A stretch of DNA of 64,000 nucleotides. Origin: Spirochaetaceae bacterium. Its GTDB lineage: Bacteria > Spirochaetota > Spirochaetia > DSM-2461. The stretch is from the NCBI GenBank assembly GCA_965224705.1, contig OZ245056.1:416001-480000 (forward strand), read 5' to 3'. The notes beneath the pieces were generated by a model. It made no database searches. It was not told the origin of the DNA and worked only from the letters and a program-made list of their open reading frames with translations. Positions 56,868 through 64,000 of this stretch are shown here, piece after piece; the stretch's first letter is position 1, and every line of letters begins with the position of its first letter. Position numbers and translations under genes: made by a program.

Positions 56868-58409
56868 ATGACAAGCAATCAACAACGTGAGGCACTGCAG
56901 CAGCAGATCTGGAAAATTGCCAATGATGTACGGGGTGCGGTAGATGGCTGGGATTTTAAGCAATATGTACTCGGTACCCTGTTCTATCGTTTTATCAGTG
57001 AGAATTTTTCCGGCTACTTTGAAGCCAATGATGAGAGCATTCACTATGCGGAACTGGACGATGGGGTGATCACTCCGGAAATCAAAGATGATGCCGTTAA
57101 AACCAAAGGCTACTTCATCTATCCCAGTGAACTGTTTGCTAATATTGCCAAAGGCGCGAATACCAACGACAGCCTGAATACCGACCTTGCCGCCATCTTT
57201 ACCGCCATCGAAAGCTCTGCCAGCGGTTACCCGTCGGAAGCGGATATAAAGGGACTGTTTGCCGATTTTGATACCACCAGCAACCGCCTCGGCAATACCG
57301 TTATCGACAAGAACATCCGTCTGGCCGCCGTGCTCAAAGGGGTGGCCGGGCTTGATTTCGGTGATTTTCACGGCAGCCAGATCGACCTCTTCGGTGATGC
57401 CTACGAGTTCCTCATTTCAAACTACGCCGCCAATGCCGGTAAATCCGGCGGTGAATTCTTCACTCCCCAGCATGTTTCCAAACTGATCGCCCAACTGGCG
57501 ATGCACAAGCAAACCAGCGTCAACAAAATATACGACCCCGCATGCGGCTCTGGCTCCCTGCTGCTGCAATCCAAGAAACACTTCGACGCCCATGTAATAG
57601 AAGACGGCTTCTTTGGTCAGGAGATCAACCACACAACTTACAACCTGGCGCGGATGAACATGTTTTTACACAACATCAACTACGACAAGTTCAATATCCA
57701 ACTGGGCGACACTCTGATCAAACCCCATTTCGGAAACGATAAACCTTTTGATGCCATCGTTTCCAATCCGCCTTACTCGGTAAAGTGGATCGGCAGCGAC
57801 GATCCAACCCTGATTAACGATGAACGCTTTGCCCCGGCCTCTGTGCTTGCTCCCAAATCCAAGGCCGACTTTGCCTTTGTACTGCATGCGCTGAACTACC
57901 TTTCCAGCAAAGGCCGCGCGGCGATTGTTTGCTTCCCCGGTATCTTTTACCGCGGCGGTGCCGAAAAAAGAATCCGCCAGTATCTGGTGGATAAAAACTA
58001 TGTGGAGACCGTGATCTCTCTGGCACCCAATCTGTTTTACGGAACCAGCATCGCCGTCAACATTCTGGTGCTTTCCAGGCATAAATCCGACACCACAACC
58101 CAGTTTATCGATGCCAGCGAGCTGTTCAGGAAAGAAACCAATAACAATGTGCTGACTATTGAGCATATTGAGCAGATCATGAAGGCGTTTGATAGCAAAG
58201 AGAAGGTGGATCACTTTGCTGAATCCGTAGACAACGAGAAGATCGCTGCCAACGACTATAACCTCTCCGTCTCCAGTTATGTGGAAGCTAAAGACACTCG
58301 GGAAGTGATTGATATTGCCCAGCTCAATGCCGAGCTGAAAACCACCGTGGAAAAGATTGACCGGTTGCGCAGTGATATTGATGCCATTGTTGCGGAGATT
58401 GAAGCATGA
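56868..58409 (+). CDS. hsdM: Type I restriction-modification methyltransferase subunit M (type IC-like, m6A)
   Basis: [38 protein letters not shown]. Confidence 0.96.
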
Positions 58410-59077
58410 GTGATATGATTATTTACACGACCGATGATGGTGCGACCAAGATTGATCTGCGTCTGGAGGGTGGCACGGTCTGGTTGTCGCAGCTGCAAAT
58501 TGCCGAACTGTTTCAAACCACCAAGCAAAACATCAGCAAGCATATTCAGGCTATTTATGATGACCATGAACTCGACGAGCAGACAACTGTCAACCAACAG
58601 TTGACAGTTCAAAAAGAAGGCAATCGCGAAGTTTCCCGTACCATCAGCGAAGTGATTTATTTGCGAGTGGACAGCGACAAACCCTTTGCCGGACTCAGCA
58701 ACTTTGAAGGCAGCCAGCCCACTCAGGCCGAAGCCATGATTGCCAAAAACTACCTCAGCGAACAGGAGCTGCGGGTGCTCAATAATCTCGTGTCGGCCTA
58801 TTTTGATCTCGCCGAACTCAACGCCATTGAACAGCGCGGGATGTGTATGGCCGATTATGTACGGGAACTGGACACCATTCTTAGCTCAACTAATAGAAAT
58901 CTGCTGGATAACGCAGGCTCCATCTCAAGCAATAAGGCCAAAGAAAAGGCCAAGCTCGAATATAGAAAATACAAAGCTAAAACACTTGATAAAGTTGAAA
59001 AAGACTACCTGAAAACCATTACAGCATTAGAGAAACAGGCCAGGAAAAAGATCCGCAAAAAAGGCGGTGAGGTGTGA
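58406..59077 (+). pseudogene. RhuM-family protein with in-frame internal deletion
   Basis: RhuM N-terminus (TVWLSQLQIAELF...EGNREVSRTI) joined near 58645 to C-terminus (SEVIY...AKNYLSEQEL); core YNLD/GYRV segment absent. Confidence 0.75.
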
Positions 59078-59748
59078 GTAAGGAACCACAGATGGACACG
59101 GATACACACAGATTGCATCCTTTTATGGAAAAGCTGCTGGATGGGGCTGGGGTGGAGTGGAAGGCGTTAAGAGATGTCTTGCTGAAAGTGGAGAATGTAA
59201 ACTGGTTAAAGGCCAACAGGACATTTAAGTATATTGATTTGTCATCGGTTGACAGAGCATTACATATAGTTACTGAAACAATAGATGTTGATTCAGCTAA
59301 CCATCCTAGCCGAGCTCAACAAATTGTGAAAAAGCGAGATGTTATTTTTGGAACGACGAGGCCGATGTTAAATCGTTTCGCCGTGATTAATGACGAATTA
59401 GATGGCGAAATCGCAAGCACAGGGTTTGCAGTTCTGAGACCAAATAAAAGCATAATCCTCTCCAAGTTTTTATATTTCTCTCTTACTGCTCGCGATTTCA
59501 TGAACTATGTTGATCAAAATCAGAAAGGTGCTGGATATCCGGCTATTTCAGATTCAGTAGTCAAAAAGTATCTAATTCCCATCCCCTGCCCGGAGAACCC
59601 GGAAAAATCGCTGAAAATTCAGGCGGAAATCGTCCGTATTCTGGACGCGTTCACCGAGCTTAACACCGAGCTTACCACCCGCAGAAAGCAGTATGAGTAC
59701 TATCGTGATCTGTTGTTGAGTTTCCCCAAGCCGGAGGAAGCATCATGA
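59074..59748 (+). CDS. hsdS: Half-size type I specificity subunit (single TRD)
   Basis: FMEKLLDGAGVEWK, one TRD, IPIPCPENPEKSL..QAEIVRILD, QYEYYRDLLLSF. Confidence 0.88.
   Translation: MSKEPQMDTDTHRLHPFMEKLLDGAGVEWKALRDVLLKVENVNWLKANRTFKYIDLSSVDRALHIVTETIDVDSANHPSRAQQIVKKRDVIFGTTRPMLNRFAVINDELDGEIASTGFAVLRPNKSIILSKFLYFSLTARDFMNYVDQNQKGAGYPAISDSVVKKYLIPIPCPENPEKSLKIQAEIVRILDAFTELNTELTTRRKQYEYYRDLLLSFPKPEEAS
59084..59113 (+). repeat. Triple 10-bp repeat arm (AACCACAGAT GGACACGGAT ACACACAGAT)
   Basis: Same pattern as 63671-63700. Confidence 0.8.
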
Positions 59749-59972
59749 GTTTCTCACGCGAAGGCGCGAAGCCGCGAAGAGATATCAAGGAAATTGCCTG
59801 CATCGTGGTGGATACCGCCTTCCAGCTGCACAAGGATTTAGGTACTGGACTGCTGGAATCTGTATATGAGGGTGCCTCGCTGATCAAAGACGGGCTGAAG
59901 CGCGTGGTCAACCATCACACCAACTTCGCGTCTTCGCGCCTTCGCGTGCACCAAAAAGGCGGGGCACAATGA
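59745..59972 (+). pseudogene. GxxExxY protein gene, internally deleted
   Basis: LHKDLGTGLLESVYE joined directly to C-terminal GASLIKDGLKRVVN; nuclease core missing compared with 63279-63581. Confidence 0.85.
59755..59948. repeat. Inverted 25-bp triple-repeat arms around the GxxExxY remnant
   Basis: 59755-59779 CACGCGAAG GCGCGAAG CCGCGAAG; 59924-59948 is its reverse complement with one mismatch. Confidence 0.92.
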
Positions 59973-60019
59973 ATCAGACGCTAACAGACATCGGCTATTG
60001 GCAGGAGGAAGCATCATGA
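59969..60019 (+). pseudogene. 16-codon scar resembling both termini of a PrrC-like anticodon nuclease
   Basis: MNQTLTDI+GYWQEEAS; ATGA overlaps at both ends; position after hsdS. Confidence 0.45.
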
Positions 60020-60087
60020 GTTTCTCACGTGAAGGCGCGAAGCCGCAAAGAAATATTGAGGAAATTGTCCGTATTGTGGTGGATACG
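60016..60087 (+). pseudogene. 5' part of a second GxxExxY gene (interrupted)
   Basis: Near copy of 59745-59815 including left arm 60026-60050; MSFSREGAKPQRNIEEIVRIVVDT. Confidence 0.85.
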
Positions 60088-60125
60088 TTGACTTAACTTG
60101 TGTGACAACTACTTTGGCACAGCGC

Positions 60126-60484
60126 GAGATATTCATAACCCTGACAGATTCCGAAGATTCTCTGTTTCAGAAGAGCACCCAGGTTATGTGTATTTTTTTC
60201 CTGATTTTTTTATCAGTGAAGAAATCTGACCGCTTTTCGATAATCCTGTACTTCTGCTCAACCTGCTGGAACAGAAGAAATCCGGCATCGGAGCTGTTGC
60301 CCTTGCCGTCATTCTTTGCAATGGTTTTGCGGGATTTTCCGATTTTCAGCCCTTGCAATTCGAACTGATAGGCTTTACACTCTGTAGTAGCAAAGCGGGC
60401 TTCTTTCTGTTTGGTATTTCTTTTCATGTAAATATTTTGACAGGGAAGCCTGCTTTGCATCAGGGTATTGATGAGAAATAGGGG
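60126..60484 (-). mobile_element. IS1380-family transposase remnant with left end
   Basis: TECK..FELQG..NDG..SSDAGFLL..VEQK..FTD, frameshift, then LLKQRIFGICQGYE; homologous to 63104-63270. Confidence 0.8.
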
Positions 60485-60490
60485 TTAAGG

Positions 60491-60738
60491 GGTGATGATA
60501 AGAAGATGGTTCAGGCGTTTATTGACTCCAAAGAACTGCCGGATCTGGTGGATAACAGTTTTACTCAGACACTGAAAACGATTCTCGCAGGGTTATAAAA
60601 AAGGCTGATCTGTTGACAAAGCTTTCCGCTCTAGGACCAGCAGCACCGGATGACTTTAAGAGAGTTCTTGGTGCCTATGTTGATGAACTGGCAAAGGGGA
60701 AAGACCCAGCCAAAGTCAGACTGGTAATGGAAGGATAG
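60491..60738 (+). pseudogene. C-terminal fragment of a DUF6079-like (BREX-associated) ATPase
   Basis: [27 protein letters not shown], stop/frameshift, then YVDELAKGKDPAKVRLVME; recognised from memory of the family C-terminus. Confidence 0.55.
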
Positions 60739-60743
60739 CAGAC

Positions 60744-61952
60744 ATGAAAAGATATACAGATGAAGAACTGTTACTTTTGCTCAATGACACTGAGTCAGAT
60801 CGTGTTGAACGTAAACAGTCGTTCAAGGGCGACACGCCTAAAAAGGCCAGACAAGCTGTTTGCGCATTTGCCAATGATCTTCCCAACCATAATGAACCAG
60901 GCATTTTATTTATTGGAGCAGTCGATGACGGGACTCCATCGCAGGAACAGATTACAGACCAAATGCTGCTATCTCTGTCAGATATTAAAACAGACGGGAA
61001 TATTTTACCGTTACCTGCAATGTCAGTAGAAAAACGAAATCTGAAAGGGGCAGAGATGGCTGTTGTGACCGTCATGCCGTCTGACATGCCTCCAGTAAAA
61101 TATGGTGGTCGAATATGGATTCGGACTGGCCCTCGCCGGGCAGTCGCAAATGAGCAGGAAGAACGAATTCTTAACGAAAAACGCAGGCACAAAAATCTGC
61201 CATTTGATATCTATCCATTCCCTTCAGCCAAACTCAGGGATCTATCTCAAACGATCTTCGAAAATGAATATTTGCCTACGGCTTTTGCGAGCGATGTGTT
61301 GGAAGCCAATGAACGCTCCTATGAGGAACGTTTAGCATCCTGCAAAATGATTACGCCTCCGGAAGATACTACACCTACGGTATTGGGTTTACTTGCCATA
61401 GGCAAAAGTCCTCAGGACTTTCTACCCGGCGCTTTTAGTCAGTTTTTACGCATTGACGGAACTGAACTCGCCGACCCGGTGATTGATGAAGAAGAGATCC
61501 GAGGTACTGTAGTCGACATCCTTCGGCGCACAGAAGAGAAATTAAAAGCACATAACCGAACCGGTGTGGATATCACATCGGCCGCAACGCATCAGAAAGT
61601 TCAGCCCTATCCTATAGCCGCCATACGACAGATTCTATACAATGCCGTACTGCATCGCTGTTATGAAGGCACCAATGCGCCCATTCGAGTCTATTGGTTT
61701 AACGACCGGATAGAGATTAGCAGCCCGGGTGGTCCTTATGGCAATGTTACCCCAGAAAACTTTGGCGAACCTGGTATTACAGATTATCGAAACCCGAATA
61801 TAGCCGATGTTCTCAAAACGTTTGGTTACATTCAGGCCTTTGGACGGGGTATTGCAACTGCACGCCGTGAAATGAATAAGAATGGAAATCCGAAGCTGGA
61901 GTTTACCGTCAATTCAAGCACTGTTCTTTGCACCCTTAGGGGGAAACAATGA
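60744..61952 (+). CDS. AlbA_2 (Schlafen) + HATPase_c_4 domain protein
   Basis: ESDRVERK, CAFAN, FIGAVDDG; YP..AIRQILYNAVLHRCY, DRIEISSPGG, RNPNIA, FGRGI. Confidence 0.88.
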   Translation: MKRYTDEELLLLLNDTESDRVERKQSFKGDTPKKARQAVCAFANDLPNHNEPGILFIGAVDDGTPSQEQITDQMLLSLSDIKTDGNILPLPAMSVEKRNLKGAEMAVVTVMPSDMPPVKYGGRIWIRTGPRRAVANEQEERILNEKRRHKNLPFDIYPFPSAKLRDLSQTIFENEYLPTAFASDVLEANERSYEERLASCKMITPPEDTTPTVLGLLAIGKSPQDFLPGAFSQFLRIDGTELADPVIDEEEIRGTVVDILRRTEEKLKAHNRTGVDITSAATHQKVQPYPIAAIRQILYNAVLHRCYEGTNAPIRVYWFNDRIEISSPGGPYGNVTPENFGEPGITDYRNPNIADVLKTFGYIQAFGRGIATARREMNKNGNPKLEFTVNSSTVLCTLRGKQ

Positions 61953-62965
61953 AAACGCCCGTCTTAACTTTCTTCAACAATAAAGGAGGGGTTGGAAAAA
62001 CATCCCTCATTTATCATCTTGCGTGGATGTATTCGACCATCGGGAAAAAAGTTATAGTTGCCGATCTTGATCCTCAGGCAAATCTCACTGCGGCCTTCTT
62101 AAGCGAAGAAAGAATTGAGCAGCTTTGGGACGAGCAGGAGTTTGGCTCCACCATCTACCATTGCGTAAGACCTCTTACGGGTGTTGGTGATATTGTTGAA
62201 CCTGTATTGCAAAAAATAAATACCAACCTGTTTTTTGTCCCCGGCGATGTAAAACTGTCCGGATTCGAAGATGTCCTTTCCAGCGAGTGGCCTAATAGCA
62301 TGAGCGATAACAATCTTTATCGTCCCATGCGAATGCTCTCCTCTTTCTGGCAAGTCATGCAGATGGGCGCGAAGCAGATTAATGCCGATATCATTCTTGT
62401 CGACATTGGTCCCAATCTGGGAGCCATCAACCGTTCGGTATTAATTGCAACCAACTTTGTTGTCATTCCTCTCGGTGCGGATCTGTTTTCCCTGCAGGGA
62501 CTAAAAAACCTGGGCCCAACATTGGGTTCCTGGAAAGACCGGTGGAAAAAAAGATTGGATAACTGGCAAGGCAGTCGGGAATGTCGCAATTATACGGACT
62601 TCGAACTGCCCAAAGGAAAAATGCAGGTCATTGGTTATCTTTGTCAGCAGCATGGGGTTCGCCTCGCTCGCCCTGTTAAAGCCTATGAAAAATGGGTGAA
62701 CCGCATTCCGAAAGTCTATCGAGAAGCAGTTTTGAACCAACATAATCCCGAGTCTTTGAAGCAGGCGGAAGATCCATACTGCCTTGCTACCATCAAGCAC
62801 TATCGGAGTCTTATCCCAATGGGGCAAGAGCATCGCAAACCGATTTTTGAATTAACCGCTGCTGACGGCGCAATCGGCTCCCATGCGAACGCGGTTCAAG
62901 ATGCAAGAGAAGATTTTAAGGCCTTAGCAAAAAAAATTGCTAAAAAGATGGGCGTGGACACCTAA
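61949..62965 (+). CDS. ParA-family ATPase (orphan)
   Basis: FNNKGGVGKT, DLDPQANLT, DIGPNLGAIN; ATGA coupling. Confidence 0.9.
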   Translation: MKTPVLTFFNNKGGVGKTSLIYHLAWMYSTIGKKVIVADLDPQANLTAAFLSEERIEQLWDEQEFGSTIYHCVRPLTGVGDIVEPVLQKINTNLFFVPGDVKLSGFEDVLSSEWPNSMSDNNLYRPMRMLSSFWQVMQMGAKQINADIILVDIGPNLGAINRSVLIATNFVVIPLGADLFSLQGLKNLGPTLGSWKDRWKKRLDNWQGSRECRNYTDFELPKGKMQVIGYLCQQHGVRLARPVKAYEKWVNRIPKVYREAVLNQHNPESLKQAEDPYCLATIKHYRSLIPMGQEHRKPIFELTAADGAIGSHANAVQDAREDFKALAKKIAKKMGVDT

Positions 62966-62989
62966 GAAAAAAGAGTAATTCTGGCATAC

Positions 62990-63270
62990 TGATCTGTTCA
63001 GGGTGCTCTTCCCTGCCGATGGAGTTTTATCATCCCGTCCGCATATATATTGAAGCAGTGGATCATCGCGCAATCGTTCATGATCATTAAGATCTTCATA
63101 CTTTACAATGATTCTGCGGGATTTTCCGATTTCCAGCCCTTGCAATTCAAGCTGATGGGCTTTACACTCTGTATTATCAAAGCGGGCTTCTTTTCTTTTG
63201 TTATTTCTTTTCATGTAAATATTTTAACATGGGAAGCCTGCTTTGTATCAAGGTATTGGTGAGAAGTAGG
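62990..63270 (-). mobile_element. Second IS1380-family remnant with left end, internally deleted
   Basis: TECKAHQLELQG joined to YEDLNDHERLRDDPLL..AGKSTLNR (IS1380 motifs). Confidence 0.85.
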
Positions 63271-63581
63271 ATTTAGACCCTGAACTGCTGGAATCTGTAT
63301 ATGGGGCGGTGTTCGCCCAAATGCTGACGAAAAAAGGGTTGGTGATAGAACATCAGAGAGCCGTGCCGATTCACTATCAGGGAATGGTGTTGGATGAAGG
63401 CTTTCGACTCGATTTTCTGGTTGATAAAGAACTGATTGTAGAGCTTAAATCTATGGAAACACTTCACCCTGTCCACCCCAAACAATTCCAGACTTATCTG
63501 CGTTTGATGGATCTTCCGCTGGGACTGTTCCTTAACTTCGGTGCCTTGCCCAAAGTATCAACCACAAGGCTAGCCCTATGA
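63270..63581 (+). pseudogene. 3' part of the interrupted GxxExxY gene (probably chimeric C-terminus)
   Basis: DLDPELLESVYG..FRLDFLV..IVELKS..KQFQTYLRL..LNFG. Confidence 0.85.
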
Positions 63582-63583
63582 AT

Positions 63584-63610
63584 TTTCGTGTTTTTCGTGC
63601 CTTTCGTGGT
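63584..63610 (+). repeat. Triple 9-bp repeat arm (TTTCGTGTT TTTCGTGCC TTTCGTGGT)
   Basis: Directly after the stop of the GxxExxY 3' fragment. Confidence 0.8.
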
Positions 63611-63666
63611 AAAAAAATGAACACCGCCCTTTCATCTTCGCACCTCCAAAAACCGGAGAATTTCTA

Positions 63667-64000
63667 ATGAAACCACAGATTAACACCGATAGACACAGAT
63701 TTCTGTATAAAGAAGAAACGCACAAAATTATTGGATGTGCGTTTGAAGTGTTGAATACACTGGGGCATGGCTTGCTAGAAAAACCGTATGAAAATGCGCT
63801 GGTTGTAGAATTTCAGCAACAAGGTATTTCTTATGCTCAACAACCTCGATTCCCTGTGATCTATAAATCAGTGAATGTTGGTGAGTATATCCCTGACCTG
63901 ATTGTGTACGATAAAATCATTGTAGACACCAAAGCAATTGAATTAATCGGCAGCAACGAAAAAGCCCAGATAATCAACTACCTGAAAATCACCGGCCTTA
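63667..64000 (+). CDS. GxxExxY protein (PD-(D/E)xK nuclease fold), 3' end outside window
   Basis: Not in ORF track; GGAG RBS, MKPQINTDRHRFLYKEETHKIIGCAFEVLNTLGHGLLEKPYENAL...IPDLIV..IVDTK..QIINYLK. Confidence 0.92.
   Translation, partial: MKPQINTDRHRFLYKEETHKIIGCAFEVLNTLGHGLLEKPYENALVVEFQQQGISYAQQPRFPVIYKSVNVGEYIPDLIVYDKIIVDTKAIELIGSNEKAQIINYLKITGL
63671..63700 (+). repeat. Triple 10-bp repeat arm (AACCACAGAT TAACACCGAT AGACACAGAT)
   Basis: Inside the first codons of the GxxExxY gene. Confidence 0.85.

Follow-up and report, generated by a model that had tools for sequence, protein, structure and literature searches.

Partnerships between a nuclease gene and a repeat family of its own have been described for the Ssn nucleases with their NTS/SRM repeats and for the RAYT proteins with their REP and REPIN repeats. 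Passages of Chenal et al. 2025 (PMC11893778) portray Ssn as a small single-domain nuclease gene with its own repeat family on both sides, many gene-less repeat copies and repeat variants that differ between homologues, and parts of the RAYT/REPIN literature (PMC3116915, PMC5581495) describe a gene between inverted repeats, dispersed extragenic gene-less doublets, low copy number and housekeeping-like conservation. These traits recur in the system reported here, found in a 64,000-nt stretch of a Spirochaetaceae bacterium (assembly GCA_965224705.1, contig OZ245056.1, positions 416,001 to 480,000 of the forward strand; hereafter the window), in which small genes of the GxxExxY family lie between inverted arrays of three short words, which we call arms. 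In the same sections of those sources, Ssn is a GIY-YIG enzyme with a single hairpin repeat of 20-50 nt and demonstrated cleavage (PMC11893778), and RAYT is a tyrosine (HUH) transposase with palindromic REPs (PMC3116915, PMC5581495), whereas here the protein is of the PD-(D/E)xK type, the arms are non-palindromic sets of three tandem 7-nt words with an 8-10-bp period that overlap the coding ends, arm cleavage is a prediction, a single genome can hold several clades, and fixed sites show allele swaps between species. Assignment to Ssn by its GIY-YIG domain (cd10448) was rejected, the 131-aa protein being filled by the PD-(D/E)xK match, as was assignment to RAYT by an HUH tyrosine transposase, the whole protein being assigned to PDDEXK_3. 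The arm-flanked GxxExxY system is real and widespread across many bacterial groups; it works like Ssn/NTS or RAYT/REPIN, yet it is a member of neither, because its protein family differs from both.

Other described systems resemble it in part. Terminal-inverted-repeat (TIR) insertion sequences (IS), miniature inverted-repeat transposable elements (MITEs) and elements with Tn7/Mu-type ends, which hold several binding sites, likewise have inverted ends of repeated sites and internal-deletion derivatives but, unlike TIR IS and MITEs, the system here comes without a DDE domain, a fixed target duplication or recent gene copies. Homing enzymes cut the allele that lacks them, whereas the candidate sites here are the element's own ends, and we know of no homing family with such arms. 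For freestanding homing endonucleases such as SegB, in the portion of PMC13096335 that concerns them, nuclease-initiated allele conversion together with segmental amplification at the locus would account for both the swaps and the tandem copies seen here. The movement of type I hsdS domains, as treated in sections of PMC3077401, relies on repeats at hsdS domain borders that permit the loss or exchange of specificity domains, and the hsdS of the window is likewise half-size, with arms found in hsdS N-termini and linkers; those repeats are, however, hsdS's own conserved regions, whereas here a foreign arm sits at the borders and most cassettes lie outside restriction-modification (R-M) operons. 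GxxExxY/PDDEXK_3 is tabulated, in one part of PMC3424549, as a family of unknown function with multiple transfers, passages of PMC9881135 do not mention GxxExxY, and no paper linking the family to repeats was found in a literature search that mostly excluded subscription journals and all supplements, where such a link could be tabulated.

An initial annotation had proposed that a GxxExxY gene plus its arms forms a mobile unit. None of the four outcomes set beforehand as contrary to that proposal (arms not enriched around the genes, no covariation with clade, no filled and empty alleles, no downstream 10-bp arm at the window locus) occurred. Our preferred reading, to which we assign a probability of roughly 55%, is that the gene encodes a self-targeting nuclease with arms of cognate words, and that nicking at the arms would lead host repair to swap, duplicate or delete the ~450-bp cassette.

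Clade-specific arms around GxxExxY genes

Our gene set comprised 210 distinct genes, all intact, drawn from relatives, metagenomes, viral contigs and three further phylum-level samples; 193 of these genes had full flanks, and a cognate arm pair was counted wherever the upstream and downstream flanks gave an inverted match score of at least 28 (an early, crude word detector, which found only 42/96, was replaced). A gene flanked on both sides by its cognate repeat, as in Ssn/NTS, was found in 142/193 cases, compared with 32/959 non-cognate pairs and 5/480 random windows, in agreement with the predicted enrichment. The name of an arm type combines the base that follows the core word C[AG]C[AG][AG]A with the period. 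Where this grammar was present on both sides (109 genes), left and right arms agreed in the seventh base in 105/109 (shuffle mean 36, maximum 54) and in the period in 92/109 (shuffle mean 36, maximum 53). On a quick tree of these 109 proteins, compared with 500 shuffles, the seventh base needs 12 changes (mean 51, minimum 41) and the period 16 (mean 48, minimum 40), so that arm type tracks protein clade as the initial annotation had expected. The full arm type was common to 40/40 protein pairs at 70% identity or above, 119/174 at 60-70% and 366/2496 at 40-50%, and only 9/24 pairs from the same genome had identical types; arm type follows the protein, not the host. Because kin share labels, this agreement means conservation of type within clades, not recognition. 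One supported clade (L009, L012, L016, L022, L023, L024, L030, L031) is without triple-word arm pairs, and several of its members have an upstream hairpin, GTCAAGG...CCTTGAC.

Across 49 strict pairs, gene plus arms had a median length of 455 bp (range 425-678), close to the 0.4-0.5 kb first estimated. The variable core positions of an arm matched its partner in 85% of cases (54% for strangers of the same type, 73% for the arm of the nearest protein), and the spacers in 62% (47% and 43%, respectively). Mismatches between paired arms comprised 40 of the G.U type, 50 of the A.C type and 97 others, from which the arms look more like arrays of sites than like a selected RNA stem, contrary to one option of the initial annotation. 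It is very improbable, in our estimate, that the arms pair as a long RNA stem by which the inserted gene would be looped out or processed and the host operon kept coupled: the G8 remnant of the window folds arm to arm as RNA (z -3.8), ~80% of neighbour genes are co-oriented with the cassette, and a co-oriented start lies 25 nt or less from the right arm in 30/49 cassettes, but there is no G.U bias on the sense strand, lone arms are common, and an Rfam search returned no family, with two chance microRNA matches far below the cut-off. In 32/49 cassettes, the left arm has an upstream stop no more than ~35 nt away, and promoter and terminator scans gave signals at or below shuffle level.

In the 3.0-Mb genome that contains the window, a strict arm grammar detected 116 arms, against 0 and 5 raw matches in two shuffles, which excludes chance; 107/116 lie outside long open reading frames (ORFs), although these span 83% of the genome. 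Seven strict gene-less doublets of less than 200 bp are present, comparable to the dispersed doublets of RAYT/REPIN. The suggestion of a transposon-like, self-copying unit did not hold up, as 49 cassettes showed no fixed-length target duplication (mean longest flank match 3.9 vs 3.6 when shuffled; the elements may be old), and no recent gene copies were seen among 78 same-genome pairs from 32 genomes (best identity 76%); the element is therefore not a classical IS. A genuine IS whose transposase is a new PD-(D/E)xK enzyme, with inverted ends of three sites each and gene-less hairpins as its MITEs, would fit the conserved outer bases of the inverted ends, the very diverse junctions occupied (with one clade at unrelated sites) and the gene-less copies that retain the gene's last codons, but we judge it unlikely in view of these two negative results and of the imprecise change from empty to filled at scpB described below. 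The genome also holds a ~398-bp non-coding TIR element in ~14 near-identical copies with 9-10-bp target duplications (e.g. G000:C1 757413-757809, 2879401-2879797, 1587996-1588391), which carries a nested GxxExxY-type arm pair and another hairpin and whose ends we take to be IS4-like. Arms are packed most densely at 1,166-1,187 kb, in a cluster that overlaps several members of a ~590-aa ATPase-like paralogue family with at least 20 related stretches (e.g. G000:C1 ~495,700-497,500).

Filled, empty and exchanged sites

Filled and empty alleles, which the initial annotation had called for, were seen both before hsdR and at the junction of two genes that we take to be scpA and scpB. At scpA|scpB, 10 of 23 congeneric genomes have a gene cassette (2 of them broken), 2 have arms without a gene, and 11 are armless, with stop and start within 4 nt of each other in 5/11. 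Inside the cassette the sequence is a mosaic whose edge falls at the left arm: L326 and L322 differ by 4-11% in the left flank, by 26-30% from the left arm to two thirds of the gene, and then by 2-5%. Conversion from paralogues was rejected as the source of the divergent alleles, no close match being present among 13 paralogue loci. In L324 the arms are kept and enclose unrelated DNA, and L334 has a gene-less hairpin with other wording. At a second site, presumably carB|recQ to judge from motifs, two species differ at 11/539 positions across the cassette vs 337/2225 outside, the last flank differences falling directly behind the upstream stop and the following ones close to the right end, and other pairs show 40-47% differences in the gene and mostly 4-24% in the flanks. 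Alleles have thus been replaced between species at fixed sites. Two further fixed sites gave a less clear exchange signal. Tracts that might reflect homing-type conversion are sharp at two sites in one genus, but background recombination there is high. As to mainly vertical inheritance, a mark of RAYT/REPIN, long retention at fixed sites stands beside exchange between species. A search for an empty site in the genus Desulfobacter gave one close homologue.

The hsdR junction was surveyed in 80 homologues from many phyla, 78 with usable upstream DNA. A right arm lies 30 nt or less from the hsdR start in 5/78 (four with an A9-clade gene, one gene-less), and a metagenome contig (L113) has a T10 cassette at this junction. 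A single arm type occurs at nearly every gene junction of the type I R-M operons of L094 (L094:3089-7271) and L097 (L097:6107-8980), and several loci have in-frame arms within hsdS N-termini or linkers. As side observations, L097 contains 110-bp tandem hairpin arrays and both operons are integron-like in look, in L010 the cassette is flanked by a ~80-bp duplication of the 5' end of a methylase gene, L002 has left-end stubs in tandem and a methylase gene with an arm in frame, and an hsdR homologue (G120:C47:38755) forms part of a 2221-aa open frame and may be fused to other subunits. Specificity of the element for R-M genes was rejected, as only 9/100 downstream neighbours scanned (hand-picked from 157, mostly co-oriented) are R-M genes, the others including tRNA synthetases, gap, carA, scpB and polysaccharide genes.

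These sites also bear on the notion that the arms are passive, i.e., that the protein has an unrelated job as a repair or R-M accessory, and that arms are spread by slippage, R-M operon transfer, long target duplication or the MITEs of other elements. Four genomes in which the R-M operon holds the only GxxExxY gene found, 16 arms located within TIR elements and in-frame fusions of the domain to RecQ are in keeping with it, and R-M gene duplications occur without any GxxExxY protein in the account given in parts of PMC3077401. It is nevertheless decidedly unlikely, because the grammar and the clade-specific type stay constant across proteins only 50-70% identical, 76 hsdR coding controls contained just one arm-like match, and the swap tracts coincide with the cassette.

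The restriction-modification operon of the window

The 3' end of the window falls inside a type I R-M operon composed of hsdM, a rhuM-family gene, a half-size hsdS, ~4.4 kb of cargo and hsdR, which starts at window-equivalent 64172, i.e. 172 bp beyond the window end. Between hsdS and hsdR lie one intact GxxExxY (PD-(D/E)xK) gene, three remnants and three arm types; at the whole locus the arms are G8 (59755, 59924, 60026), A9 (63584) and T10 (59084, 63671, 64063, 64125). The features are as follows.

56868..58409, + strand: hsdM, type I R-M methyltransferase of the host operon (TIGR00497, 647 bits)
58406..59077, + strand: rhuM-family cargo gene of the host operon (PF13310, E 2.7e-33)
59074..59748, + strand: half-size hsdS with a single specificity domain, N-terminus partly arm-encoded (PF01420)
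59084..59113, + strand: T10 left arm, 10-bp period, word CACAGAT, in frame in hsdS (repeat search)
59745..59972, + strand: G8/G9-clade GxxExxY remnant with an apparent internal deletion, both arms retained (weak TIGR04256 match, under cut-off)
59755..59779, + strand: G8 left arm, 8-bp period, word CGCGAAG (repeat and clade comparison)
59924..59948, - strand: G8 right arm (24/25 complementary to 59755-59779)
60001..60086, + strand: duplicated hsdS 3' end, G8 left arm (60026-60050) and GxxExxY 5' stub (86-nt direct repeat, 88% identical to 59730-59815)
60126..60487, - strand: DDE transposase 5' remnant, interrupting the G8 gene (PF13701 under cut-off; at least 10 copies in the genome)
60744..61952, + strand: AlbA_2/RecG-C cargo gene between the two IS remnants (PF04326, PF13749)
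61949..62965, + strand: ParA-like ATPase cargo gene (PF13614)
62924..63275, - strand: second DDE transposase remnant, direct repeat of the first (repeat search; PF13701 under cut-off)
63268..63581, + strand: 5'-truncated chimeric GxxExxY remnant, G8-clade body with A9-clade last 18 codons (TIGR04256, 85 bits)
63584..63611, - strand: A9 right arm, 9-bp period, word CACGAAA, of the same clade as the adjoining tail (repeat and clade comparison)
63667..64062 (window part to 64000), + strand: intact GxxExxY nuclease gene, T10 clade, 131 aa (TIGR04256, 141.7 bits)
63671..63700, + strand: T10 left arm encoding the first codons of the intact gene (repeat and clade comparison)
64063..64092: second T10 left arm, after the intact gene (sequence past the window end)
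64125..64154: T10 right arm beyond the window, 17 nt before the hsdR start

All repeats named in the initial annotation are present where it placed them, with the end of the 9-bp right arm at 63611. Its near-perfect match between the 8-bp arms stands for 59755-59779 against 59924-59948 (96% complementary) and drops to 88% for the second left arm; its count of at least three GxxExxY genes or remnants was right, although only the gene at 63667-64062 is intact; and its assignment to TIGR04256/PF13366 is supported by matches for the ORFs at 59745 (weak, under cut-off), 63309 and 63667. Left arms had been placed in the first codons of GxxExxY genes, which is so at 63671 but not at 59084, where the arm sits in the hsdS N-terminus; hsdS homologues begin MS..FMEKLLDG without an arm, and arms lie in frame at the equivalent place in L033, L094, L097 and L100. 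The right arm of ATCTGTG type predicted past position 64000 is the one at 64125-64154, which agrees with the three 10-bp left arms in 25, 24 and 24 of 30 positions, and the extra left arm at 64063-64092 implies that gene-less hairpins also occur.

Each of the G8, A9 and T10 arms of the window adjoins a protein piece of its own clade. In the remnant at 63268, the top 8 matches of the body are all G-type and those of the last 18 codons all A9, like the adjoining arm, so that arm type and protein clade agree throughout the window, the chimera included. Both ends of the 59745 ORF match mostly G8/G9 proteins, and it is probably a G8-clade gene with its middle deleted; DDE remnants, the AlbA_2/RecG-C gene and the ParA-like gene separate the stub at 60001-60086 from the gene body at 63268. 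The junction appears to have been occupied in turn by G8, A9 and T10 cassettes. Contigs from public runs include a related allele that joins the ends of 59745 to the 63392-63526 body, a joint from 63618 to 64135 that bypasses the intact cassette (two runs, short side 27 letters, intervening letters unread), a tandem copy of the terminal hairpin, and a joint between 59832 and 64040 on opposite strands (two runs, short side 43 letters), which could reflect an inversion or another locus. A further public-run contig joins across the hsdS specificity domain (59166-59574) with other sequence between, which points to a second hsdS allele in the population.

The two direct-repeat DDE remnants, the first presumably of IS1380 type, enclose the AlbA_2/RecG-C gene and the ParA-like gene in the manner of a composite transposon that has decayed, and a 41-aa piece at 60613-60735 has a weak DUF6079 match. 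Past the G8 right arm, a stub at 59970-60000 resembles the start of the gene that follows hsdS in L033, which we take to be PrrC-like, and the operon may once have carried a gene of this type. No dedicated site-specific recombinase, as would mark a type I R-M shufflon, was present among the ORFs scanned at the locus, the rest of the genome lying outside this search.

The nuclease and its proposed action

The intact protein matches TIGR04256 at 141.7 bits (cut-off 35) over positions 2-116 and PF13366 at E 1.8e-31, and its predicted structure is a minimal PD-(D/E)xK fold (predicted local distance difference test score, pLDDT, 97). The nearest folds are lambda exonuclease (E 5e-4) and Cas4 SSO0001 (Z 8.3, root-mean-square deviation 3.1, 98 aligned), with BpuSI tied (Z 8.1); Z values of this size speak for a predicted fold, not for function. 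No HUH, tyrosine-recombinase or DDE chain is among the fold matches listed, and such a list cannot prove absence. The catalytic residues are intact (E26 in 209, D65 in 209, K77 in 208, Q89 in 205 and Y93 in 203 of the 210 proteins), and the restriction-endonuclease-like fold with its E, D and (D/E)xK residues places the protein among the PD-(D/E)xK nucleases. A profile search gave 18,177 clusters at 50% identity (E up to 1e-10), and among the top 150 matches, a ranking that favours double-domain proteins, 55 are tandem double-domain proteins, 54 of 55 with the catalytic set in one domain only, which suggests that the enzyme acts as a dimer with one cutting centre. These tandem proteins (P0001-P0142) measure 250-295 aa, nearly all with one catalytically dead domain. 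The gene is under purifying selection, with ratios of nonsynonymous to synonymous substitution (dN/dS) of 0.06-0.19 in 8 measurable intact pairs at scpA|scpB (frameshifted L326 rows dropped; L329 and L332 missed by the pattern).

In the preferred reading, the unit is one small PD-(D/E)xK gene between two inverted arrays of three short words, which would be the enzyme's candidate sites, and the protein would bind and nick its own word type. Cuts at the arms may then start gene conversion, giving rise to allele swaps, chimeras, tandem copies and gene-less hairpins, while new sites are probably gained rarely and imprecisely, and surviving copies would be those that keep operons readable, with the left arm at the stop codon or in frame and the start codon after the right arm. 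For a family of unknown function, the arms would thereby be a tangible candidate substrate that brings its own specificity controls (T10, T9, A9, G8, G9 and C10 types), so that its function could be tested with few oligonucleotides. Should the enzyme cut its cognate arms, a third, independent pairing of nuclease and repeats would join RAYT/REP and Ssn/NTS. Such a pairing would account for a class of intergenic repeats that is widespread, and it might shape the exchange of cargo in R-M operons.

A host-kept system similar to Ssn or RAYT is another candidate: it would cut single-stranded arm DNA and modulate uptake or repair, and the swaps would reflect useful alleles spreading in sweeps through ordinary recombination. 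Such a role agrees with the long persistence of the gene at fixed junctions of housekeeping genes (dN/dS of about 0.1), with the absence of recent duplicates among the pairs compared, with the rarity of the gene on plasmids (7 of 72,556 records) and with its absence from 50,697 phage records with the same query, as well as with the layout of ssnA between repeats in passages of PMC11893778. We take this possibility seriously but consider it rather doubtful, since presence is patchy (11/28 good genomes among relatives), remnants, chimeras and broken copies are many, several unrelated clades occur per genome, and the arms are word arrays with spacers only 62% complementary. A bolder form of the self-targeting reading, which we entertain tentatively, would place the system in a new class of selfish elements: a minimal one-sided dimer similar to Cas4 or lambda exonuclease would read a three-word end code and drive arm-to-arm cassette replacement without a transposase, and arms at operon junctions, as in L094 and L097, might let defence cargo and hsdS domains be exchanged, much as in an integron but with no integrase. 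If this is true, the ~18,000 protein clusters, with a readable word-per-clade code, would also amount to a large family of short-site nickases.

Several observations weigh against a self-targeting nuclease. Plain co-inheritance also yields agreement between arm and clade, and 51/193 genes have no scoring arm pair, among them the 8-gene clade with a different hairpin. The filled scpA|scpB alleles share a derived scpB start, which implies one old, imprecise insertion; the swaps come from one genus that recombines widely, with patchy flank divergence; the limits of the exchange tracts were set after inspecting the data; and the recQ site has degenerate arms. In the window genome, 16/116 arms ride inside the TIR element, 14/16 copies having target duplications of at least 8 bp, so that part of the arm spread is hitch-hiking, and the CACGAAA arm family is present without an intact gene bearing exactly that word. 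No GxxExxY match came from three genomes whose hsdS contains an arm, and the read joints of the window locus are hints only, coming as they do from mixed-sample contigs.

Fusions of the GxxExxY domain were also seen. It is joined in frame to the N-terminus of a protein that motifs lead us to take for RecQ in L351 and L360 (883-887-aa frames) and also at G353:C7:20120-20467, and another fusion frame spans 1062 aa.

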